Below, one piece after another: positions 6,334-23,358 of a stretch of 24,000 nucleotides of DNA; the first letter of the stretch is position 1; each line of letters starts with the position of its first letter. The stretch lies in assembly GCA_963769885.1 (NCBI GenBank), contig CAVYNH010000006.1, positions 409,791 through 433,790 on the forward strand, read 5' to 3'. The position numbers and the translations under genes are program-made. Source of the DNA: Methanobacteriota archaeon. GTDB lineage: Archaea; Thermoplasmatota; E2; DHVEG-1. The notes beneath the pieces were generated by a model that worked only from the letters and a program-made list of their open reading frames with translations, had not been told where the DNA came from and did not search any database.

Positions 6334-7407
6334 TTAGGTCACCTTCATGGTTAAGGTTTCGAGGGCGTCGACGATGCTATCTGCCTGGTCGCGGAGCGGG
6401 TCTATGACGGGGACGTGGAATCGTTCATGGTAATGGGTTTTGTGGGTGTTCATCTCAGCTGGGGTGAGGTGTTCGTGGCTGAGGCCGATGCCGAGGAGGG
6501 GTTTTTCGGTGATGAGCTCGGCGATGGAGACGACGCGTTGGGGGTCGGGCATAGGGTAGTCGGGGAAGCCGTCGAGGTGGGGGCGGCCCGGGGCGTCCAT
6601 GAGAAAGAAGCCGTGGACGCGGCCGGCGGTGAGGATTTCGAAGCCGCCGGGGAAGAAGGGGTGGACGAGGCTGCCTTGTCCTTCGATGATGATGTATTGG
6701 GGGTGGTCGTCGTTCCAGGAGTCGAGAATGGCGCCTTCGATGCCGCCGCTGATGAAGTCGTTGATGAGGGCGTCGAGGACGACGCCGTGGGGCCAGCCTT
6801 GCATCCAGCCGGTCTGTCCGGTGAAGATCATGTCGGCGGTGTAGCCATGGTTGCGGAGTTCGTTGACGAGGATAACGGCCATGGTGCGTTTGCCGATGGC
6901 GGAGTCGGTGCCGAGGAGGGCGATGCGAGTGGCCGGGATTTTGGTGATTTCTCCGGTGTAGAAGCGTTTGTGGTCGCGGTAGATTTTGCGGATGTCTGTG
7001 ATGGTGCAGTGGTGTCGTTTGGCGAGGCTGACGCAGTGGGGTTTGTCGGAGATGAATTCGTGGAGGCCGGAGACGATGTTGAGTCCGTGGGTGAGGGCGG
7101 TTTCGACGGCGTGTTCGTAGCCGGTGGGGAGGATGCCGCCTTCGGAGACGGCGCCGATGATGAAGGTGTCTGAGTTGGTCTGGTCGATGGCGGTTTGTAG
7201 TGAGGGGATGAGGGGGATACCGTTGGGTGTGCCGTCGAGGAGTTGCCCGGCGTCGCCGGGTGGGAGGGTGGTGTCGACGACGGCGGTGATGTCGTAGCGG
7301 CGGCAGTAGCGGATGAGGCCGTGGGCGGTTTTGCCGTCGGTGGTGGTGTAGAGCCGGTCTGCGTACACGATGGCGCGTGGTCGGTCCATGTGGTGGTTGC
7401 TCCCCAT
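6334..7407 (-). CDS. DUF1611 family P-loop protein (DgcN-like)
   Basis: 357 aa with a two-domain layout. ALLGTDSAIGKRTMAVIL matches the GTDxxxGK(R/M)T P-loop characteristic of DUF1611. An N-terminal Rossmann-like region is present. It sits 37 nt downstream of the PLP enzyme gene. Confidence 0.65.
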   Translation of the reverse strand: MGSNHHMDRPRAIVYADRLYTTTDGKTAHGLIRYCRRYDITAVVDTTLPPGDAGQLLDGTPNGIPLIPSLQTAIDQTNSDTFIIGAVSEGGILPTGYEHAVETALTHGLNIVSGLHEFISDKPHCVSLAKRHHCTITDIRKIYRDHKRFYTGEITKIPATRIALLGTDSAIGKRTMAVILVNELRNHGYTADMIFTGQTGWMQGWPHGVVLDALINDFISGGIEGAILDSWNDDHPQYIIIEGQGSLVHPFFPGGFEILTAGRVHGFFLMDAPGRPHLDGFPDYPMPDPQRVVSIAELITEKPLLGIGLSHEHLTPAEMNTHKTHYHERFHVPVIDPLRDQADSIVDALETLTMKVT

Positions 7408-7444
7408 TTTTTTTGTTGGAAAAGTCCTCAGGCTTTTGTTTTTT

Positions 7445-8479
7445 TTAGCGGAATCGTCTGCCGGTGAGGACGATGACGTAGTCGGAGTTGAGGACGCGGT
7501 GTTGTTTGAATTTGATGAGGGCTTCGATGGGGCTGGTGGAGGCGGGGAGGACGCTGAGTCCTTCGATGTCGAGGAGGAGGCGGTGGAATTTGAGCATGGT
7601 GTTGTCGCTAGCGTAGTCTGCCCAGCCGTTGGTTTGGTAGATGGCGTTGAGGGCGTGGTCGCCGTCGTAGGAGTGGTAGCTGATGAGTGGTTCGTTGATG
7701 GTGGTTTCGTGGAGGTCGTCGGGGTTGAGGTCTTCGGTTTTCGAGGCTCCGGTTTTGAAGCCGCGGACGATGGGGTTGCCGCCAGGCGTGCTGGCGCCGA
7801 CGAGGTAGGGGAGGTGGTCGATCTTGCCTTGGTCGAGGAGTTGTTTGAAGCCGTGGTAGATGCCGACGAGGGTGGTGCCGTTGCCGACGGGGGTGGCGAC
7901 GGCGGTGGGGCAGCGGCCGAGTTGGTGGTAGATTTCGGTGGCGATGCTCATGTAGCCGCGCCAGCCTTCGTTGCCGTTGCCTGGGTTTGCGTCGTAGTAG
8001 TGTTCGGTTTTGGCGAGGTGTCGACTGGCTTCGACGGCGTCTTCGTATTTGTCGTAGTCGGTGAGGATTTCGGCGCCGAATGAGTTGAGGGTTTCGCGGC
8101 GGTGTGGTGCCATCGTGTATTTTTCGGGGATGAGGATTTTTGCTTTGAGTCCGACGAGGTTGGCGAAGTAGGCGAGGCTGACGCCGTAGTTGCCGCAGGT
8201 GCCGACGGTGACGGTGTCGTAGCCTTCGCGCAGTGCCTTGGTGACGTGGTATTGAGAAATACGGTCTTTTTGGGTTCCGGTTGGGTTGCTGCCTTCGAAT
8301 TTCAGGTAGATGTTGCCAAAACCCAAGAGAGACTCAAGGTTGCGTGCTTGAGTAAACAGTGTTCCCCCGACACCCTTGGCGGGTGGTGGCTCCTCGTCTT
8401 TTTGGAGGTCCGAGACATCCATTTTTAGTGAACTCCCTATGTCCTTTGCGGTCTTTGCTGCGTACCCTATATTGCTCAC
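7445..8479 (-). CDS. PLP-dependent enzyme, fold type II (tryptophan synthase beta superfamily), threonine-synthase-like
   Basis: FEGSNPTGTQKDR matches the PLP-lysine motif (ThrC NPTGSFKDR, CysK SxKDR). GTCGNYG and VGNGTTLVG (phosphate loop) are present. The track start at 8479 is a GTG. An ATG at 8418 (MDVSDLQ...) preceded by GGAG is an alternative start. Confidence 0.7.
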   Translation of the reverse strand: MSNIGYAAKTAKDIGSSLKMDVSDLQKDEEPPPAKGVGGTLFTQARNLESLLGFGNIYLKFEGSNPTGTQKDRISQYHVTKALREGYDTVTVGTCGNYGVSLAYFANLVGLKAKILIPEKYTMAPHRRETLNSFGAEILTDYDKYEDAVEASRHLAKTEHYYDANPGNGNEGWRGYMSIATEIYHQLGRCPTAVATPVGNGTTLVGIYHGFKQLLDQGKIDHLPYLVGASTPGGNPIVRGFKTGASKTEDLNPDDLHETTINEPLISYHSYDGDHALNAIYQTNGWADYASDNTMLKFHRLLLDIEGLSVLPASTSPIEALIKFKQHRVLNSDYVIVLTGRRFR

Positions 8480-9860: not shown

Positions 9861-10943
9861 ATGTTTTGTATGAGGGAAGCCCGTGGAGTTGTCGTATGTA
9901 CGATCATAGCGGCTCTGTTTCTTGTGGGCATCTATCCTGTGGGTGCCCAGAGTCCGCCGATCGCCGATGCTGGTGGCCCCTATGTGGGGTACGAGTGCAA
10001 TGTCCTGTATTTTGATGCCTCGCGGTCGTTCGATCCGGACCATGATGCGTTGCAGTACCGGTGGGATTTCAACGGCGACGGGGTCTTTGATACGTCCTGG
10101 TCGTCGGAGCCGGACGCGTTGTATCAGTGGTTGGATGATTTCACGGGGACGTGCCAGGTCCAGGTTTCGGATGGGCAGTCGATCTCGGATGCGACTGCCG
10201 CTGTCCGGATCATGAACGTGTATCCTGTCATCGAGTCCATCACGGGGCCGGCGTATCCCGTCGAGGTCGGCTCTGAGGTCTATATCTTCGTCTCATTTTT
10301 TGATGGGGATGACCGCAGCGGCGTCCTCTCGGCTGATTCGTTCCAGGCGGTGTTCACGTGGAGCGATGGCACGCAGACGACGTATCAGGTGCCCAGCGGG
10401 GTCCAGACGGTCACCGGGACTCATGTCTACAGCGACCCTGGAGTGTACCCGGTCTTCGTCGAGATCACGGATGATGATAACGGCTCGTGTTCCGGTTCGT
10501 ACTACTACGTGGTCGTGTTTGAGCCGAATCCGCTGCCGGGCACCGGGTTTGTGACGGGCGGCGGCTGGATCCTCTCACCGCCCGGTGCGTACCGGTTGAA
10601 CCTGACGTTGACCGGCCAGGCGAACTTCGGGTTCAACGCCAAGTATCACAAAGGCAAGCAGATCCCCTCGGGTGAGACCGAGTTCAATTTGCATGTCGCG
10701 AGCTTGAACTTCCATTCCACGGACTACGAGTGGTTGATCGTGACGGGGAACCGGGCCCGGTACAAGGGGAACGGCACCATTAACGGCGACGGCGACTATG
10801 CGTTTATGCTCACCGGAGTCGATAACGGGAACAGGGGGGACCAGTTCCGCATCAAGATCTGGGACAAGGCGATCGGCACCCTAATCTATGACAATAACCA
10901 AGACCAGATCATCGACGGCGGGCAGATCGTGGTCCACCAGTAA
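9861..10943 (+). CDS. Secreted protein with two PKD-like domains and a C-terminal beta-rich domain
   Basis: Signal peptide M(FCM)REARGVVVCTIIAALFLVGIYPVGAQS. First PKD domain: PIADAGGPYVGYECNVLYFDASRSFDPDHDALQYRWDFNGDG. Second PKD-like domain ends GTHVYSDPGVYPVFVEITDDDNG. The C-terminal GGGWI....ANFGFNAKY...YAFMLTGVDNGNRGDQFRIKIWD module is of a type seen in many secreted proteins. Confidence 0.75.
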   Translation: MFCMREARGVVVCTIIAALFLVGIYPVGAQSPPIADAGGPYVGYECNVLYFDASRSFDPDHDALQYRWDFNGDGVFDTSWSSEPDALYQWLDDFTGTCQVQVSDGQSISDATAAVRIMNVYPVIESITGPAYPVEVGSEVYIFVSFFDGDDRSGVLSADSFQAVFTWSDGTQTTYQVPSGVQTVTGTHVYSDPGVYPVFVEITDDDNGSCSGSYYYVVVFEPNPLPGTGFVTGGGWILSPPGAYRLNLTLTGQANFGFNAKYHKGKQIPSGETEFNLHVASLNFHSTDYEWLIVTGNRARYKGNGTINGDGDYAFMLTGVDNGNRGDQFRIKIWDKAIGTLIYDNNQDQIIDGGQIVVHQ

Positions 10944-11079: not shown

Positions 11080-11150
11080 CAGCCCCGGGCGGATTTGAAC
11101 CGCCGACGTTGGCTCCAAAGGCCAAAATGTTGCCACTACACCACGGGGCT
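11080..11150 (-). tRNA. tRNA-Gln (anticodon UUG)
   Basis: Minus strand reads AGCCCCG-TG-GTGT-AGTGGCA-ACAT-T-TTGGC-CTTTGGA-GCCAA-CGTC-GGCGG-TTCAAAT-CCGCC-CGGGGCT-G. It folds by hand into a full cloverleaf: 7-bp acceptor, 4-bp D stem, 5-bp anticodon stem, 5-bp T stem. U33 and purine 37 flank the TTG anticodon. Has A1:U72 and G73, with no encoded CCA. Confidence 0.9.
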
Positions 11151-11181
11151 CCACGCAGCAAGGGAAAACAGCCACAGGATT

Positions 11182-12864
11182 TTAAGGTTTAGCACCCGCC
11201 GCGCCCTGGATCTTCCCCCAGGTATCCCGCAGCTCCACCGACCGATTCAACACCAAACGCGTCGCAGTCGACCCCGGATCCACGCAGAAATACCCCAGCC
11301 GCTCGAACTGGAACCGGTCCAATGGCTTGCAGTGACGGACCGTCGGCTCGACCTTACAGCCATGCAGGACCTCAAGAGACCGCGGGTTCAGGAACTCCTT
11401 GAAATCCGCCCCCTTCTGATCCAGCGGGTCGCGTACCGTGAACAGCTTGTTGTAGAGCCGGACCTCCGCCTCCACCGCATGCCGGGCAGAGACCCAATGG
11501 ATCGTGGACTTCACCTTGCGGCCGTCCGGGGCGTACCCACCCTTGGTCTGCGGGTCGTACGTACAGCGCAACTCCACGACCCGACCATCCTTCTTCACGA
11601 CATCCTTGCAGGTGATGAAGTACGCGTACCGCAATCTGACCTCGCGGCCGGGCGCGAGCCGATAGAACTTCGGCGGCGGCTGCTCCATGAAATCCTCCTG
11701 CTCGATGAACAGGGTCTTGGAGAACGGGATCCGTCGGGACCCCATGGACGGGTCCTCGGGGTTGTTGACCGCCTCGACCTCCTCGGTCGTCTCAGGATAG
11801 TTCTCGATCGTCACCTTCAACGGCCGCAGCACACCCATGTACCGCGGTGCCGCCCTGTTGAGGTCATCGCGGATGCAGTGCTCCAGGAACTCGTAGTCGA
11901 CGATGCTGTTGAACTTCGCGACCCCGATGCGCTTGGAGAACAACCGAATCCCCGAGGGCGAGTACCCGCGCCGGCGCATCCCGGAGATCGTCGGCAGCCT
12001 CGGGTCGTCCCACCCGTTGACGTACTTCCCCTCGACGAGCTGCAGCAGCAGCCGCTTGCTCATCACCGTAAAGGTGAGGTTCAGCCGTGCGAACTCGATC
12101 TGCTGCGGATGATACACCCCGAGCGCGTCCAGGAACCAATCGTACAGCGGCCGATGGTTCTCAAACTCCAGCGTACAGATGGAATGCGTGATCCGCTCAA
12201 GGGAATCCTCCAGCCCATGCGCCCAGTCGTACATCGGGTAGATACACCATTTATCCCCCGTGTTGTGGTGCGTCGCATGCAGGATGCGGTACATCACCGG
12301 GTCCCGCAAGTTCAGGTTCGGATGGTTCATGTCGATCTTCGCACGCAGGACCTTGGAGCCGTCCGGGAACTCCCCCGCCTTCATGCGGCGGAACAAGGAG
12401 AGGTTTTCCTCGATGGAGCGGTCGCGGAAGGGACCATTGATCCCGGGCTTGGTGAGCGTGCCGCGCAGGTCAGCGATCTGGTCTGCGGTCAAGTCGTCGA
12501 CATAGGCCTTCCCTTTCTTGATGAGGTCCTCGGCGTACGCGTACATCTGGTCAAAGTAATTCGAGGCGTAGAACAGCCGGTCCTGCCAGTCGAACCCCAG
12601 CCATTTCACATCGGTGATGATGGACTGGACGTACTCCTCCTCCTCTTTCGCGGGGTTCGTGTCATCGAACCGCAGGTTGCACTTCCCGTGGTACTCCTCG
12701 GCGATCCCGAAGTTCAGGCAGATGGACTTCGCATGGCCGATGTGCAGATAGCCGTTCGGTTCTGGGGGAAACCTGGTGTGTACGCGGCCCTGGTACTTCC
12801 CTGACTGAAGGTCCGCGTCGATGATTTCCCGGATAAAATCCCTGCTCGCTTGCTGTTCGCCCAT
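11182..12864 (-). CDS. glnS: Glutaminyl-tRNA synthetase, bacterial-type (no eukaryote-style N-terminal extension)
   Basis: 560 aa. From memory it is collinear over its whole length with E. coli GlnS: [39 protein letters not shown] (HIGH), [34 protein letters not shown] (KMSKS), [39 protein letters not shown]. The 569-aa + strand ORF 11095..12804 is its antisense shadow. Confidence 0.9.
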
Positions 12865-12905
12865 CTGACACCGACTCCCACATCAGACTCACTAGGAGTA
12901 GACAG

Positions 12906-12977
12906 CAGCCCCGAGCGGATTCGAACCGCTGACAAGAGATCCAGAGTCTCCTATGTTAACCGCTACACCACGGGGCT
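12906..12977 (-). tRNA. tRNA-Gln (anticodon CUG)
   Basis: Minus strand reads AGCCCCG-TG-GTGT-AGCGGTTA-ACAT-A-GGAGA-CTCTGGA-TCTCT-TGTC-AGCGG-TTCGAAT-CCGCT-CGGGGCT-G. The cloverleaf folds by hand. Anticodon is CTG. The acceptor and D stems are identical to those of the UUG isoacceptor. Has A1:U72 and G73, with no encoded CCA. Confidence 0.9.
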
Positions 12978-13017: not shown

Positions 13018-13030
13018 TATATAACCTTTC
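13018..13030 (-). promoter_or_regulatory. BRE/TATA promoter candidate for the tRNA-Gln(CUG)-glnS-tRNA-Gln(UUG) unit
   Basis: Minus strand reads GAAAGG-TTATATA, a purine-rich BRE-like element followed by a TATA box, about 45 nt upstream of the tRNA 5' end. Confidence 0.45.
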
Positions 13031-13130: not shown

Positions 13131-13751
13131 TTAGCTGAGGGCGAAAACGTCGTCAGGGATATCGTCGAAGGAGATGTTGGTCAGCAAAACAGTGGTGGTC
13201 ATATTTGGGCCGAAGATGGCGGGGGTGGATTCGATTTTGAGGGGAAGGCCGTTGTCGTTCCAGAGCCAGGCGCGAACGGTGGTGTTGGTCACGTGTGTGC
13301 CGGTTTGGTATTGAACGATGGTGGTTTGTTTGCCGTCGATGACGTCGGTGCCGACCTGGGTGAGGTGGGCGGTGAGCATCTGGTTGGTGCAGTTGCCGAC
13401 AATGTTGGGGATGGGTATGGGAGAGTTGTCCCAGGTGTGGGTCATGATGTTATACATGTAGGTGCCGTTTGGGGTACTGATATAAGTGGCCGTATAATTT
13501 TCGACGTATTCTTGTTGTTTCATGTAGTGAGGTTTTTGCCAGAAGTGAGAGGTGAGGGTCACGTTATTGGTGGTGCCTATGGTGTCGGTGGTGACGATGG
13601 TGGTCATGTCGTAGTTGATAGTGGTGATCTGGTTGGCCTTGCTTACGAGGGTGGTGAGGGGGTTGGCTTGGGTGTTGGTCTGGGTGCATCCAGAAAGGAG
13701 AAGGATAGCGAGGAGGAGGGCTACACCGAGGAGTGCGTGTGTGCGTGGCAT
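13131..13751 (-). CDS. Predicted lipoprotein, LolA-like/DUF4367-like fold suspected
   Basis: 206 aa. MPRTHALLGVALLLAILLLSGC is a signal peptide with a lipobox (LSGC). The mature part is rich in Thr, Asn and N-x-S/T sequons. The late segment DVIDGKQTTIVQY....AWLWNDNGLPLKIE resembles lipoprotein-sorting-like beta-barrel proteins. The family call is weak. Confidence 0.6.
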   Translation of the reverse strand: MPRTHALLGVALLLAILLLSGCTQTNTQANPLTTLVSKANQITTINYDMTTIVTTDTIGTTNNVTLTSHFWQKPHYMKQQEYVENYTATYISTPNGTYMYNIMTHTWDNSPIPIPNIVGNCTNQMLTAHLTQVGTDVIDGKQTTIVQYQTGTHVTNTTVRAWLWNDNGLPLKIESTPAIFGPNMTTTVLLTNISFDDIPDDVFALS

Positions 13752-14753: not shown

Positions 14754-15140
14754 GATGACCAAGTATTGGGATAGGATCAGGTCTTTTTACCCTTGTGGAA
14801 AATGTTTGGGAATCGCCGAACTACTCGGGGTGGGTTAAGGTTGTGTGAAGACAATCGAAGTTTTGTCAGCGAGGAAGCAGCCGTAGAGGGGGCAGGTGGT
14901 CTGTTTGGTGATGTCGTCGGTCTCGAACTCCCGCCGGCGGCAGAGATGGAGGACGATGGCCTTCAGGGGTGAGGTTAATACCGGTTGTTATTTGGGGATA
15001 GTGGAAAAATGCTCGTAGAATATCGCAGTCACGTTGTTTTCGGTCCTTGTCTTTTTGTACACTAGGGGTTCAGGGGGGTGAGGCGCGGGGAGCCAGTAAA
15101 GCCTTTTGAGATTAAGATACCCGAATTAAAATTGTTAAAA

Positions 15141-15182
15141 ACATGAATTAAAACCGTGTTAATACTTCTGTTTTGAATTTTT
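15141..15182 (+). repeat. Left copy of an imperfect direct repeat flanking the AT-rich ORF
   Basis: Left copy reads ACATGAATTAAAACCGTGTTAATACTTCTG-TTTTGAATTTTT; right copy at 15908-15968 reads ACATGCGTTTATACCGTGTTAATGCTTCTG-(21-nt insert)-TTGAATTTTT. The 21-nt cores 15150-15170 and 15917-15937 match at 18 of 21 positions by hand count. Confidence 0.6.
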
Positions 15183-15192
15183 ATCTATTACA

Positions 15193-15208
15193 AACATTTA
15201 AATAAATG
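15193..15208 (+). promoter_or_regulatory. Palindromic AT-rich element overlapping a TATA-like sequence upstream of the 15255 gene
   Basis: ACATTTA-AA-TAAATGT is a 7-bp inverted repeat with a 2-nt spacer, about 50 nt upstream of the ATG at 15255. A strong GGGGAGG Shine-Dalgarno site lies 8 nt before the ATG. Confidence 0.35.
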
Positions 15209-15254
15209 TGCAATATATTTAATCATGTCCTGATGTAACAGGGGAGGCAAGAAT

Positions 15255-15710
15255 ATGAGAGAAAGAACTATTTTGAAGAAAGCTGGAGTTTTTTCCGTGA
15301 TAGCAGTATTGCTATTGACTGCGACTGGTATGACAGTAAGTGCAAGAAACGATACGACACAATCGGTCACCACTTGTGCACCCATTGGTGACCCAACGAA
15401 TGTCACCTTCAACTTCAAAGGCGGTTTCGGTTTCACTATTGTGATAACAAATACTGGTAACGCAACAATGGCCATCAAAAATTGGACCTACAACATAAAC
15501 ATGACTCTGGGTCTGATTCTCCTTGGCAAAACAAAGAGTGGTACTAACATAACGCTTGCGCCAGGAGCATCAACCAAAATAAAAACGATACCCATCGGCA
15601 TAGGTGTAGGAACTGTTGAAATTAACATGTCCGTGCCTGATGAATATGTGTATGAATATTGGGAACGTGTTTATTTTATCGGTCCTTTTGTTCTACCACC
15701 CCAATCATAG
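15255..15710 (+). CDS. Small secreted protein with a CARDB-like beta domain (unknown function)
   Basis: 151 aa. Has a strong SD (GGGGAGG) and the signal peptide MRERTILKKAGVFSVIAVLLLTATGMTVSA. The mature domain ITNTGNATMAIKNWTYNI...GLILLGKTKSG...LAPGAS...IGIGVGTVEI aligns by eye with the C-terminal domain of the 23395.. protein. The codon usage is AT-rich and unlike the rest of the window. Confidence 0.7.
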   Translation: MRERTILKKAGVFSVIAVLLLTATGMTVSARNDTTQSVTTCAPIGDPTNVTFNFKGGFGFTIVITNTGNATMAIKNWTYNINMTLGLILLGKTKSGTNITLAPGASTKIKTIPIGIGVGTVEINMSVPDEYVYEYWERVYFIGPFVLPPQS

Positions 15711-15764
15711 ATAGCTAAAATCGACAACATACTTCCATAGAACATCCATTCGCTCTCTTTCTTA

Positions 15765-15788
15765 TTTTTTTGCTTTCGCACAAAAAAA
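15765..15788 (+). terminator. Oligo-T tract / weak hairpin terminator after the 15255..15710 gene
   Basis: TTTTTTTGC-TTTC-GCACAAAAAAA is a T7 run followed by an A/T-rich imperfect hairpin, 55 nt after the stop codon. Confidence 0.4.
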
Positions 15789-15852
15789 CCATGATCAATT
15801 TTTGTCTCAAAACCATGTCAATACTTGCATCAAAAACAATGATAGATTTATA
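15785..15852 (+). repeat. Three tandemly spaced degenerate copies of the same 20-nt motif family (AAAACCRTGWYAATACTT-like)
   Basis: Copies are AAAACCATGATCAATTTTTG (15785), AAAACCATGTCAATACTTGCA (15809-15829; 16 of 21 identical to 15150-15170) and AAAAACAATGATAGATTTATA (15832). They are spaced about 23-27 nt apart and share the orientation of the flanking repeats. Confidence 0.5.
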
Positions 15853-15907
15853 TACTACAAGAAAAAACCTAAATTCAATCCCGTTTTCTATTGTTTACGT
15901 CAAGTCG

Positions 15908-15968
15908 ACATGCGTTTATACCGTGTTAATGCTTCTGATTTCTAAGGATATGTTTTTATTGAATTTTT
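15908..15968 (+). repeat. Right copy of the imperfect direct repeat flanking the AT-rich ORF
   Basis: See the left copy at 15141-15182. It has the same orientation and lies about 767 bp away. Confidence 0.6.
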
Positions 15969-16180
15969 TGAACTAATGATGCTATACCTAAGTGATAAGA
16001 ACAAGAATGACCTGCGGGTGATGATTACGCTGAAGAAATCAGGAATCATTCTCTCCGAGAAAATACGGCTTCTTTGGCATTTTTTTTCATTCGGAAGTAC
16101 CGGAGCCTTCCCTCCTAAGAGAAAACCACCTCGGTGGAAGCGCTTAAAAACCCCCGCGAAGTATCCACCACCGACCCCCC

Positions 16181-21081: not shown

Positions 21082-21762
21082 TTAGGCCGGTTTTTTCTTT
21101 ATAAAGAAAGGGCCGGCGAGGACGTAGACGAGGATCATGCCTAAGAGCAGGAGCGGGCCGGCGATAAAACCCAGGAGGGTGAGGGGGAGGGAGGCGAGGA
21201 TGACGAGGCTCGCGACCACGGTTGTGTATCTCCCCAGTTTTGGGTACGGCAACGAGGCGACCTGCATCAGCCCCAAGAGGATGAGGACGGCGAAGATAAC
21301 GAATGCAGGGAACCAGGAGGGTCCGAGGATCGCCAGGCAAACGAGGATGATCGTGCTCGCGGAGGCCGGCAGGCCGAGGAACGCCTCTTTCTCCTTCAGC
21401 AGATGGAAGCTGGAGAGCCGGGTCACGGCGCAGAACAGGAAAAACAGCATCCCGGCCAGCAAGAGTCCGAGGATGAGCGGCTGCAGGCCTGTGGCATAGA
21501 TGCCGTAGACGAAGACCGCCGGCGCCACGGTCAGGGAGACGAAATCGGCCATCGCCTCGAGGTAGTCGCCGATCTGTCCGCCGCCGAGCCGACGGGCGAC
21601 GACGCCGTCCAGGCCGTCCGCCAGCAGCGCCAGCAGGATCAATGAGAACGCCAAGGGGATCTGACCAGAGAAGACGGCGAGAATCGCCAGCAGCCCGAAG
21701 CCTGCGTTCAGGATCGAGAGTCCGTCGGCGACCGTCAGGAATCTAAGCATGGTGCTGGGCAA
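21082..21762 (-). CDS. pssA: CDP-alcohol phosphatidyltransferase; archaetidylserine synthase-like
   Basis: 226 aa polytopic membrane protein. DGLDGVVARRLGGGQIGDYLEAMAD is a variant of DG-x2-AR-x8-G-x3-D-x3-D, with one residue fewer and a D-to-E change. It overlaps the upstream decarboxylase gene by 20 nt. Confidence 0.75.
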   Translation of the reverse strand: MPSTMLRFLTVADGLSILNAGFGLLAILAVFSGQIPLAFSLILLALLADGLDGVVARRLGGGQIGDYLEAMADFVSLTVAPAVFVYGIYATGLQPLILGLLLAGMLFFLFCAVTRLSSFHLLKEKEAFLGLPASASTIILVCLAILGPSWFPAFVIFAVLILLGLMQVASLPYPKLGRYTTVVASLVILASLPLTLLGFIAGPLLLLGMILVYVLAGPFFIKKKPA

Positions 21763-22390
21763 GGGTATCCTCTCCTGCTTTCACCCGGTCATGGAGCCGC
21801 ACTGCCAGGGACGCGACCATAGCCTCTGGGAGGTACACATCCACGCGGGACCCCAGGCGGATCAGCCCGATGCGGCTGCCTCTCGCGACCACGTCGCCGG
21901 GCTTGATGTAGGGGACGATGCGGCGGGCGACCGTCCCCGCAATCTGGACGACCTTCACTGTCCCGCGGGGCGTTGTGAGATGGATGGTGACGCGCTCGTT
22001 GCGTTCCGAGTCCTTGGTGAACGCGGGCAGATGGCCGCCAGGGGCATGCTCCACCTTGGTGACAGTCCCATCGACCGGGCTTCGGTTCACATGAACGTTA
22101 TGGATGTTCATGAAGGTTTTCACCCAGTAGCAGGGGCCGACGTCCGGGTCGTCGATGGTGGCGATGCCGGTGATGACGCCGTCGGCGCAGGCAACGATGC
22201 CCACCCCTATTTTTCGCTCCGGGTCGCGGAAGAAGATGACGAGCAGGATGATTCCGGCGAGGCCGAGGAGGGCGGCGATGAGGAAGACGATGTGGAGGAG
22301 GCCGTCGGAGGCCAGGGTGCCGACATCGAAGACGATGGTGGCCATTCCGACCCCGATGATCCAGAGGGGGCATCCTCGGGCGAGCCTCAC
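21743..22390 (-). CDS. psd: Phosphatidylserine (archaetidylserine) decarboxylase, short archaeal type
   Basis: 215 aa with N-terminal TM helices. FMNIHNVHVNRSPVDG and IAGTVARRI are present. The self-cleavage-type motif is IRLGSRVDVYLP (LGS-T/R). It starts at a GTG and overlaps the archaeosortase stop in a shared GTGA. Confidence 0.75.
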   Translation of the reverse strand: MRLARGCPLWIIGVGMATIVFDVGTLASDGLLHIVFLIAALLGLAGIILLVIFFRDPERKIGVGIVACADGVITGIATIDDPDVGPCYWVKTFMNIHNVHVNRSPVDGTVTKVEHAPGGHLPAFTKDSERNERVTIHLTTPRGTVKVVQIAGTVARRIVPYIKPGDVVARGSRIGLIRLGSRVDVYLPEAMVASLAVRLHDRVKAGEDTLAQHHA

Positions 22391-23358
22391 CGTTTCCCTC
22401 CGAGGAATTGTTCGAGGGGACCTTTGCGTTTGGGGAGGTTGATGACGCCCATGATGTCGTCGTAGAGCTCCGGGACGATGTGGAAGGTGAGGAAGAGGAT
22501 GGCAATGAGGGCGAGCAGGGAGCCGGCTTTGCCGATGACGTTGTGCGCCATTTCAAAGGAGATACCGCTGCCGGTCATGAGGACGACGCCGGTGTTGCGG
22601 ACGAGGTTGAGGAGGTAGACGGGGACGACGGTGGCGAGCAGCGCGACGGTTTTCCGTTTCGGCTTGATCTTGGGCATGGCGCCGAGCATCCCGACGAAGA
22701 GGAGGAGGGATTGGACGGCGGTGCAGGCGAAGATGATGTGGATGGCGGTGTCATTGTAGGTGATGGTGGCCCCGGTCTGGGTGACGGTGAAACCGAGGAG
22801 GCGGAGCATCCAGACGGTCTGGTCGGCGACAATGAGAATGAGACCGTCGGAGAGGAACGGCAGGAGCTGTTCTATGGAGAAGTAGATGAGGCCGGCAAGG
22901 CAGGTGGCGCCGGCGATCCAGTTGAGGGCGGCGGGGTACTCCCGGCGTTTGGTAGAGAGCCATTCGTGGTAGGCGAGGTAGATAAGGACGTAGATGCCGA
23001 TGACGCAGATGGCGGCGTTGATGATGTCGCCGCCTTCTGAGAAGTAGAGGAGGTTGGTGTAGGTGGTCCAGAAGAGGGCGAAGAGGATCCAGCCGGTCAT
23101 CTTGAATCGGCTGCCGCGCTGCTGTTGCTTGTCGAGGGTGCCGATGCCGAGGAGGATGAGGCCGGCGAAGAGGGGGATGAGGTTGACCCAGTGGTACGGC
23201 GGCAGCGGATACGGGAAGAGGATGAAGTTGATGAGGATCATGGCTGTGGGGCCGCCGAAGAACCAGAGGAGGATCCGGGAATCCTTTGTGTCGGGTGTGG
23301 TGGATGCCATTGCTTGAAGATCAATTGGGCTGTATGGGGTGAGTCTACAAAAACCCAT
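22387..23358 (-). CDS. artA: Archaeosortase (ArtA-like exosortase/archaeosortase family transpeptidase)
   Basis: 323 aa polytopic membrane protein. HIIFACTAVQSLLLFVGML carries the conserved catalytic Cys context. YLLNLVRNTGVVLM carries the conserved Arg. EMAHNVIGKAGSLL carries the conserved His. Synteny with psd and pssA supports the call. The alternative start is ATG 23310 (MASTTPD...). The subfamily assignment is tentative. Confidence 0.7.
   Translation of the reverse strand: MGFCRLTPYSPIDLQAMASTTPDTKDSRILLWFFGGPTAMILINFILFPYPLPPYHWVNLIPLFAGLILLGIGTLDKQQQRGSRFKMTGWILFALFWTTYTNLLYFSEGGDIINAAICVIGIYVLIYLAYHEWLSTKRREYPAALNWIAGATCLAGLIYFSIEQLLPFLSDGLILIVADQTVWMLRLLGFTVTQTGATITYNDTAIHIIFACTAVQSLLLFVGMLGAMPKIKPKRKTVALLATVVPVYLLNLVRNTGVVLMTGSGISFEMAHNVIGKAGSLLALIAILFLTFHIVPELYDDIMGVINLPKRKGPLEQFLGGKR

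Follow-up and report, generated by a model that had tools for sequence, protein, structure and literature searches.

A bacterial-type glutaminyl-tRNA synthetase gene between two resident tRNA-Gln genes: a probable direct-glutaminylation cassette in Thermoplasmatota

We analyzed a 24,000-nucleotide (nt) stretch of archaeal contig CAVYNH010000006.1, referred to below as the window. Its minus strand carries a module in which glnS, the gene for a bacterial-type glutaminyl-tRNA synthetase (GlnRS), lies between the genes for tRNA-Gln(CUG) and tRNA-Gln(UUG), which together read both glutamine codons. We consider it probable, at roughly three chances in four, that this is a direct-glutaminylation cassette of the Thermoplasmatota, in which a bacterial GlnRS was captured once and lies between the host's own tRNA-Gln genes. 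A published survey reports no GlnRS in archaeal genomes (PMC5388404), and reviews up to 2022 recognize no archaeal GlnRS, a gap they attribute to an A73 tRNA-Gln that, they argue, is unreadable by the bacterial and eukaryotic enzymes (PMC9499178, PMC8762117, PMC5388404). One of these states that "all archaeal species" lack GlnRS, gives A73 as the archaeal rule and G73 as the bacterial one, and presents the difference as the proposed reason why archaea never acquired the enzyme (PMC9499178). Cultured Methanomassiliicoccales use the amidotransferase route (PMC4153887). In the searchable literature we found no description of a Thermoplasmatota GlnRS clade, of a tRNA-enzyme-tRNA operon, or of the discriminator and D-loop changes reported below; the only mention of an archaeal GlnRS found there concerns Heimdallarchaeia and is made in passing. 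GlnRS itself is textbook knowledge, and annotation pipelines already name these genes.

The module and its promoter are laid out as follows, in 5′ to 3′ order of the minus strand.

13018-13030, minus strand: BRE/TATA-type archaeal promoter (transcription factor B recognition element plus TATA box), GAAAGGTTATATA, with its end 40 nt before the mature 5′ terminus of tRNA-Gln(CUG)
12906-12977, minus strand: tRNA-Gln(CUG), 72 nt, with A1:U72, G2:C71, C3:G70, G10, a 16-nt D arm, G73 and no encoded CCA (ARAGORN and Rfam)
12865-12905, minus strand: spacer 1, 41 nt, with GGAG, resembling a Shine-Dalgarno element, some 10 nt ahead of the ATG
11182-12864, minus strand: glnS, encoding a 560-residue bacterial-type GlnRS with HIGH at residues 41-44 and VMSKR at 267-271
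11151-11181, minus strand: spacer 2, 31 nt, from the glnS stop codon to tRNA-Gln(UUG), with no TATA-like box
11080-11150, minus strand: tRNA-Gln(UUG), 71 nt, with acceptor and D stems as in the CUG tRNA, a 15-nt D arm, G73 and no encoded CCA (ARAGORN and Rfam)

A preliminary description of this DNA had given the same order of elements with the same intervals of 41 and 31 nt. Every feature it listed was recovered where it had been placed, and the two intervals hold with position 73 counted as the last base of each tRNA; ARAGORN extends tRNA-Gln(CUG) by one 3′ base (to 12905). The CUG and UUG anticodons proposed there are supported by ARAGORN and Rfam, and the two genes are the sole tRNAs in the window (Rfam RF00005, 61.1 and 63.2 bits against a gathering score of 29). 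A co-directional gene (13131-13751) ends upstream of the unit and a convergent gene for a PKD-domain protein (9861-10943) lies downstream; these two mark its limits.

Judged by its sequence, the window protein is unambiguously a bacterial-type GlnRS with an intact active site. It scored 722.8 bits against the GlnRS model TIGR00440 (cut-off 425.8; NCBIfam), whereas the GluRS models remained below their cut-offs (archaeal TIGR00463, 355.3 against 401.75; bacterial, 73.7 against 289.95), as did the GluQRS model; the protein is thus placed with GlnRS rather than with archaeal GluRS, as had been proposed. Three Pfam domains match, namely PF00749 (residues 28-336, E = 2.4e-107) and the β-barrel anticodon-binding domains PF03950 and PF20974. 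In a comparison with PDB entries, GlnRS of E. coli and P. aeruginosa scored 697 and 721 bits, the Deinococcus enzyme 509 bits, and eukaryotic GlnRS 406-469 bits (yeast, 415; human, 469), against 271 bits for eukaryotic-type and 194 bits for archaeal GluRS. The collinearity with E. coli GlnS claimed at the outset extends end to end, over E. coli residues 8-552 at 57% identity, and the eukaryotic N-terminal appendage of about 200 residues is indeed absent, the human alignment beginning at human residue 263 and query residue 26. The top NCBIfam model, at 851 bits, was NF011291 (GlnRS/YqeY fusion), yet the match is confined to positions 10-560 of its 769, and the protein, which has 560 residues, is without the C-terminal YqeY domain (about 200 residues). 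Because the match is partial and the protein ends there, the "YqeY fusion" name used in databases is a misnomer for this clade. The NCBI pipeline systematically names the archaeal proteins "glutamine--tRNA ligase/YqeY domain fusion protein", owing to the best-scoring NF011291.

The functional residues were compared with those of 32 members of the archaeal clade described below. The seven residues of the glutamine pocket of E. coli GlnRS (Arg30, Asp66, Tyr211, Ser227, Cys229, Phe233, and Gln255) are found unchanged in the window protein and throughout the 32 members, and the HIGH and MSK motifs are kept in all 32 as well. The residues that read the anticodon (C/U34, U35, and G36) are Arg341, Arg402, Arg410, Arg412, and Gln517, which are invariant or nearly so in the 32 members (one has Lys at Arg412), and Arg520, which is also conserved. 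Leu136, the residue with which the E. coli enzyme opens base pair 1:72, does not vary in the 32-member sample and is variable among 79 bacteria; one archaeal protein sampled later (P0222) has Val. The position of Asp235, which reads G3:C70 in E. coli, is Asn in 32 of 32 members, a substitution that fits the C3:G70 pair of the linked tRNAs; Asn235 is also found in the Planctomycetota matches L001, L003, L006, L014, and L036. When enzyme residues that track A73 versus G73 were sought, only positions 272 and 490 separated the two A73-linked enzymes from those linked to G73, which at n = 2 is a lead and not a result. From the conserved functional residues we infer that the enzyme would glutaminylate the linked tRNAs directly. 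The family also includes the neofunctionalized GluRS2 and GluQRS, and a GlnRS-like paralogue with another job (a non-discriminating or tRNA-Gln-specific GluRS, or a GluQRS-type enzyme) was considered for that reason; it is made highly improbable by the full length of the protein, the presence of both β-barrel anticodon-binding domains, a TIGR00440 score far over its cut-off where the GluRS and GluQRS models fall short of theirs, and the invariance of Arg30, Tyr211, Gln255, Cys229, Ser227, and Phe233.

Unlike the enzyme, the tRNAs have archaeal bodies. Both begin AGCCCCG and end CGGGGCU followed by G, giving A1:U72, G2:C71, C3:G70, and G73, and both have the D stem GUGU/ACAU; CTG or TCT follows the 3′ end, so CCA is not encoded. 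The shared acceptor and D stems, A1:U72, G73, and lack of CCA can all be read directly in the two genes, in agreement with the preliminary description. As archaeal-type tRNA-Gln they have the cloverleaf, the CUG or UUG anticodon, A1:U72, and the AG(C/U)CCCG stem, and they depart from the type at A73. A tRNA-only pattern scan of metagenome contigs recovered 73 archaeal-type (A1:U72) tRNA-Gln genes, with the following relation to glnS.

A73: 65 genes, adjacent to glnS in 0 of 48 testable
G73: 8 genes, adjacent to glnS in 5 of 6 testable

The difference in adjacency is significant (Fisher p = 1.9e-6). Most of the A73 genes have the acceptor stem AGCCCCG exactly as in the window, so position 73 and the acceptor stem, singled out at the start for comparison, behave differently: G73 is set against A73 in the unlinked tRNAs and the stem is shared. 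When distinct sequences were pooled, the glnS-linked and unlinked sets differed as follows.

G73: 13 of 17 glnS-linked sequences, 0 of 57 unlinked
One D-loop nucleotide missing: 15 of 17 glnS-linked sequences, 0 of 57 unlinked

Every one of the 57 unlinked sequences thus combines A73 with the longer D loop, and since a single clade supplied the linked tRNAs and many lineages the unlinked, some of the differences, for example in the anticodon stem, may reflect lineage. Identity of the window tRNAs is 76-90% with ordinary archaeal A73 tRNA-Gln but 47-64% with bacterial tRNA-Gln, a comparison in which the former figure is inflated by a scan pattern built from the window tRNAs themselves and the contrast with bacteria stands; the bacterial set includes the tRNAs adjoining the most similar bacterial glnS genes. 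The window tRNAs are, we conclude from these likenesses, resident archaeal tRNA-Gln that were evidently changed later and not bacterial imports. In a set of eight distinct linked CUG tRNAs, none of the 21 cloverleaf pairs is broken and six show compensatory changes, and the acceptor stem and discriminator are invariant, which marks these as working genes under selection.

Two further observations concern the tRNAs. The tRNA-Gln(UUG) is 100% identical over 71 nt in the window and in L081, L209, and L211-L216, loci whose GlnRS is only about 80% identical; the genomes sharing it differ by 13 points in GC content, and the CUG isoacceptor is far more variable. In bacteria, the GlnRS of Bacteroidales and Lentimicrobium (L054, L063, L068, and L069) has Val235 and Pro136, and the adjacent tRNA-Gln has A73 and lacks G3:C70, while bacterial loci with Asp235 (L009, L013, and L046) have G3:C70 and G73. 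The set is small, but enzyme and tRNA clearly co-vary in it, and by more than one solution.

The arrangement CUG tRNA-glnS-UUG tRNA, here called the sandwich, was surveyed in related genomes, as had been suggested. It is present in every locus of subclade I of the archaeal GlnRS clade with enough sequence, namely the window, L081-L086, L209 (M11B2D), and L211-L216, and the shorter subclade I contigs are consistent with it. The flanks of L081 and L085/L086 are unrelated to those of the window, yet the sandwich is kept; for L082 and L083, synteny with the window extends beyond 15 kb. Among the subclade II loci, the sandwich is found in L238 and L243, and L237 has glnS followed by a CUG tRNA. Its recurrence across both subclades makes it probably ancestral. 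In all related loci examined, a tRNA-Gln lies within about 950 nt of glnS. The bacterial control consisted of 80 glnS loci among the matches listed at 61-71% identity; the sandwich occurs in none of the 80 and none has both isoacceptors. Given this contrast with its recurrence in all related loci examined, the arrangement is far beyond chance.

Eight of the 80 bacterial loci have a tRNA-Gln(CUG) no more than 5 kb from glnS (L009, L013, L016, L046, L054, L063, L068, and L069), which points to a loose linkage of glnS and tRNA-Gln in Anaerolineae and Bacteroidales too. In L063 and L068 it is about 100 nt downstream of glnS on the same strand, and 8 of the 22 tRNA genes found in those bacterial loci are tRNA-Gln(CUG), far above expectation. 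Taken by itself, this loose linkage would be compatible with transfer of a whole cassette, enzyme and both tRNAs, from a bacterium, the second of two origins left open by the preliminary description. We regard such a transfer as very improbable, and somewhat more so than the paralogue considered above. Both isoacceptors are found in none of the bacterial loci, bacterial tRNA-Gln genes have U1:A72 as their first pair, CCA is encoded in several of the sampled ones, and with 47-64% identity to bacterial tRNA-Gln the window tRNAs instead match ordinary archaeal A73 tRNA-Gln in acceptor stem, D stem, and T arm. The other origin proposed at that time, a bacterial GlnRS to which resident tRNAs adapted, is the one that stands. 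On an A73-type archaeal contig (L154, 9256-9429), tRNA-Gln(CUG) and tRNA-Gln(UUG) stand in tandem, 27 nt apart and in sandwich order; such a tandem pair was found in 1 of 80 tRNA-first loci scanned. It is speculative that glnS was inserted into a pre-existing tandem CUG-UUG pair like this one.

Two database searches returned hundreds of metagenome proteins with 73-100% identity to the window GlnRS, and all of those named by organism are from Thermoplasmatota, including Thermoplasmata archaeon M11B2D, Thermoplasmatales archaeon ex4484_30, and a "Methanomassiliicoccales archaeon". M11B2D is a metagenome-assembled genome (MAG) of Thermoprofundales/MBG-D, the latter short for Marine Benthic Group D (PMC6461988). 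The nearest bacterial proteins among the matches listed are 61-71% identical and come from many phyla. In a neighbor-joining tree the archaeal clade was monophyletic among 79 bacterial GlnRS (bootstrap 97/100), and in a second such tree 33 of 33 archaeal sequences grouped together. The host loci span 31-58% GC, and the GC content at third codon positions (GC3) of glnS tracks that of its neighbors. In the window, glnS has a GC content of 0.608 and a GC3 of 0.854, within the range of 0.71-0.88 for the confidently annotated neighbors, so the match in composition reported earlier holds. A single acquisition is supported because the clade is monophyletic and the composition of glnS matches hosts of differing GC; together these indicate, as far as trees and composition can, that the gene was transferred from bacteria once, long ago, and has descended vertically since. 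The preliminary description had cautioned that the linked GlnRS might prove common and already annotated. The enzyme is both common and already annotated as GlnRS; the same is not true of the tRNA changes or the operon.

The host is a genuine archaeon, and the genes neighboring the module are archaeal. Archaeosortase A (22387-23358; 127 bits against a cut-off of 75) and Trm1 (TIGR00308; 19320-20435; 296 bits against a cut-off of 281) are encoded in the window, as is a THEP1-type NTPase. A CDP-alcohol phosphatidyltransferase (21082-21762) resembles archaetidylserine synthase but scores below the cut-offs of those models; its sole above-cut-off match is to the bacterial-type pssA model TIGR00473, and it is therefore uninformative on the domain of life. 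Among related loci, L159 encodes transcription factor B and L160 a CCA-adding enzyme of archaeal type. An archaeal GlnRS comes as a surprise, and outside archaea the closest relatives among the matches listed are bacterial, at 61-71% identity; for these reasons a bacterial gene chimerically joined to archaeal DNA during assembly or binning was weighed. This artefact is effectively refuted. The gene lies between archaeal-type tRNAs and behind an archaeal promoter and is flanked on either side by archaeal genes, a 785-kb contig (NCBI and ENA) encodes a protein with 100% identity to the window GlnRS, and the arrangement recurs in dozens of independent assemblies (JGI, ENA, NCBI, and Logan), including single-contig genomes of 1.9-4.2 Mb.

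The varied neighborhoods of the module might also be explained if it were cargo of a mobile element or virus that integrates at tRNA genes. The flanking genes do differ among L081, L085, and the window, and fragments of an IS66-family transposase lie about 9 kb away in L081. This explanation is nevertheless very unlikely. There is no integrase or transposase adjacent to the module in the window or in most loci, a scan of viral contigs returned nothing above 56% identity, and the synteny of the window with L082 and L083 over more than 15 kb, the deep coherent subclades of the GlnRS tree, and a base composition that tracks the host all speak against it.

A single promoter appears to serve the unit. 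The BRE/TATA candidate of the preliminary description, GAAAGGTTATATA at 13018-13030 on the minus strand, is the only exact match to RAAANNTTATATA within the window, where two matches are found with one mismatch allowed against 0.05 expected by chance. Its position is kept in relatives: an A-rich BRE and a (T/C)TATATA box occur 40-45 nt upstream of the tRNA in L081, L082, L085, and L086, despite different flanking genes. Spacer 1, which in relatives measures 19-41 nt and always bears GGAG, GGAGG, or GGGG, is too short to hold an independent BRE/TATA promoter. Spacer 2 measures 27-49 nt in subclade I relatives and has no TATA box; it is 221 nt long in L238. When the 3′ part of the unit was folded, no structure reached significance (z = 0.38), and a terminator could not be assigned. 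The conserved placement of the promoter and the short spacers suggest that tRNA, glnS, and tRNA would be co-transcribed.

We propose the following course of events. As the comparisons above show, a bacterial-type GlnRS gene entered the ancestor of the lineage once, was inherited vertically, and took on the base composition of its hosts. One BRE/TATA promoter upstream of tRNA-Gln(CUG) would drive a tRNA-mRNA-tRNA precursor, from which RNase P and RNase Z would excise the two tRNAs, and the glnS mRNA left over would have a short leader with a Shine-Dalgarno element; the tRNAs would be completed by the CCA-adding enzyme. With one shared precursor, enzyme and substrates would be made together. The resident tRNAs already offered features read by bacterial GlnRS (a weak 1:72 pair, G2:C71, G10, U35, and G36), and most of the clade additionally gained the bacterial G73 in place of the otherwise invariant archaeal A73 and lost one nucleotide from the D loop, lineage-specific changes at positions of importance for recognizing the acceptor end. 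G73, the shortened D loop, and Asn235 may be mutual adaptations.

Several observations weigh against this reading, in addition to the inflation and the lineage effect attached above to the tRNA comparisons. Both direct charging and co-transcription are predictions from sequence features. The GlnRS trees are neighbor-joining trees with an E. coli root and no eukaryotic outgroup. The layout varies in subclade II: L159 and L239-L241 have only the CUG tRNA with glnS, and in L242 a UUG tRNA lies 620 nt upstream of glnS. G73 is not obligatory, as both tRNAs of the full sandwich in L243 have A73, with a short 15-nt D arm. L237 has an A73 tRNA-Gln(CUG) with a long D loop 252 nt after glnS, and in L158 an A73 tRNA lies 951 nt from a glnS fragment. 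Finally, the cassette may not be the sole route to Gln-tRNA, since M11B2D has both the module and a transcribed GatE homologue.

Some of these loci have features of their own. The GlnRS of L243 is P0222, which has Val136 and Asp235 instead of the usual Leu and Asn of the clade; on this 790-kb contig (ERZ23498930) the two tRNAs are identical except for the anticodon, and a gene for class I LysRS lies immediately upstream (L243/L244). In L239-L241, which are of the ex4484_30 type, the CUG-glnS pair adjoins genes for an AsnC-family regulator and a 339-residue class II synthetase-like protein (PF00152). The latter may be a paralogue of AsnA-type asparagine synthetase, which would place two amide-amino-acid functions side by side. 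G73 UUG tRNAs away from glnS were found on archaeal contigs in L160 and possibly L168, and fit lineages in which the module has been split.

The bearing of M11B2D on the indirect pathway deserves closer consideration. Its contig MUGE01000080.1 bears a full G73 sandwich, and the genome study lists M11B2D_scaffold_622_3 as gatE (arCOG01719, 512 bits) among its highly transcribed genes, at 12,926 transcripts per million (PMC6461988, supplementary file 6). The GlnRS cassette could accordingly operate alongside a retained non-discriminating GluRS and GatDE. Under such a dual pathway, GatDE might clear Glu-tRNA-Gln formed on shared tRNAs, or a G73 set might serve GlnRS and an A73 set GluRS and GatDE; either variant is compatible with a functional cassette and disputes only its self-sufficiency. 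A1:U72, kept in all linked tRNAs, has been described as a recognition element of GatDE (PMC2943598) and can be counted in its favor. The same pair does not discriminate between the readings, however, because bacterial GlnRS also needs a weak first pair. M11B2D is moreover a single MAG with duplicated marker genes, in which a binning error is possible, and the best match of its GatE in the non-redundant protein database is bacterial, with 40% identity. Both isoacceptors already come with the cassette, and no A73 tRNA-Gln was found on any contig with a G73 module, within the roughly 20 kb visible per locus. Archaea usually have one gene per tRNA isoacceptor. On balance, we see the dual pathway as a serious alternative that falls a little short of an even chance. 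Of the "self-contained module" of the preliminary description, what stands is that the enzyme and both cognate tRNAs are packaged together; self-sufficiency is unproven in view of the M11B2D GatE.

Our preferred reading of the module as a captured GlnRS among resident tRNA genes can be extended, more tentatively, to the pathway as a whole. A branch of the Thermoplasmatota may have switched, or may be in mid-switch, from GluRS and GatDE to direct charging through a captured GlnRS and a rewritten tRNA-Gln identity (A73 to G73, plus the D-loop deletion). The operon would keep the co-adapted partners together, and the A73 sandwiches, split modules, and retained GatE would be natural intermediates. 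We think this extension possible, with the odds leaning against it. If it is true, the intermediates document a stepwise crossing of the tRNA identity barrier long proposed to keep GlnRS from archaea.

The window holds other features unconnected with glutaminylation. A low-GC island at 15100-16000 (29-42% GC inside a 58% GC window) contains an open reading frame (15255-15710, plus strand; 151 residues) with a signal-peptide-like N terminus, a GC3 of 0.38, and codon usage unlike that of its neighbors; a family search with it gave no match. Direct repeats of 34 nt, 82% identical, at 15141-15174 and 15908-15941 bracket the island, and the syntenic L082 holds genes for HypA and a PQQ β-propeller protein at its position. 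The island has the look of a cassette inserted recently. A gene pair located four genes downstream of the module is kept in the window (6334-8479) and in L082 (14264-16348); it encodes a pyridoxal phosphate-dependent threonine-synthase-like protein (NF004996, 402 bits) and a DUF1611/DgcN-like P-loop protein.

These results indicate that a large, environmentally common archaeal lineage did acquire GlnRS, and point to tRNA positions that changed alongside it. The "identity barrier" hypothesis becomes directly testable in this lineage. The module bears on the co-evolution of translation components after horizontal transfer, on annotation (the mislabeled YqeY fusions), and on the design of orthogonal synthetase/tRNA pairs.

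Among known systems, the module is closest in its enzyme to bacterial GlnRS and tRNA-Gln (PDB 1GTR, 1QTQ, and 5BNZ), with which it shares the family, the domain order, 57% identity to the E. coli protein, and the key residues. The window tRNA likewise offers the weak 1:72 pair, G2:C71, G10, U35, G36, and G73. It differs from bacterial tRNA-Gln in having A1:U72 and not U1:A72, C3:G70 and not G3:C70, and G37 and A38 in place of A37 and U38, and in lacking an encoded CCA, and the enzyme differs in the Asn at Asp235, the archaeal host, and the placement of its gene between its tRNAs behind a BRE/TATA promoter. With the archaeal GluRS and GatDE pathway it has in common the codons served, the acceptor stem, and A1:U72; unlike that pathway, it has a dedicated GlnRS and linked tRNAs that mostly carry G73 and a shortened D loop. 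The Deinococcus-type GlnRS/YqeY fusion (NF011291; PDB 2HZ7) provides the top NCBIfam model, but the window protein is without YqeY. The Heimdallarchaeia GlnRS genes, mentioned in passing beside cox genes (bioRxiv 10.1101/2024.07.04.601786), are also archaeal, but belong to another phylum and another neighborhood and have no described tRNA linkage. A parallel in organization is pylT-pylS, where a synthetase gene is coupled to its own tRNA gene and the unit persists across genomes (see also the background in PMC4153887). The pyl system, however, brings a new tRNA and a new amino acid and moves whole, whereas here a foreign enzyme is combined with host tRNAs altered in place, and the GlnRS cassette would re-route a standard amino acid.

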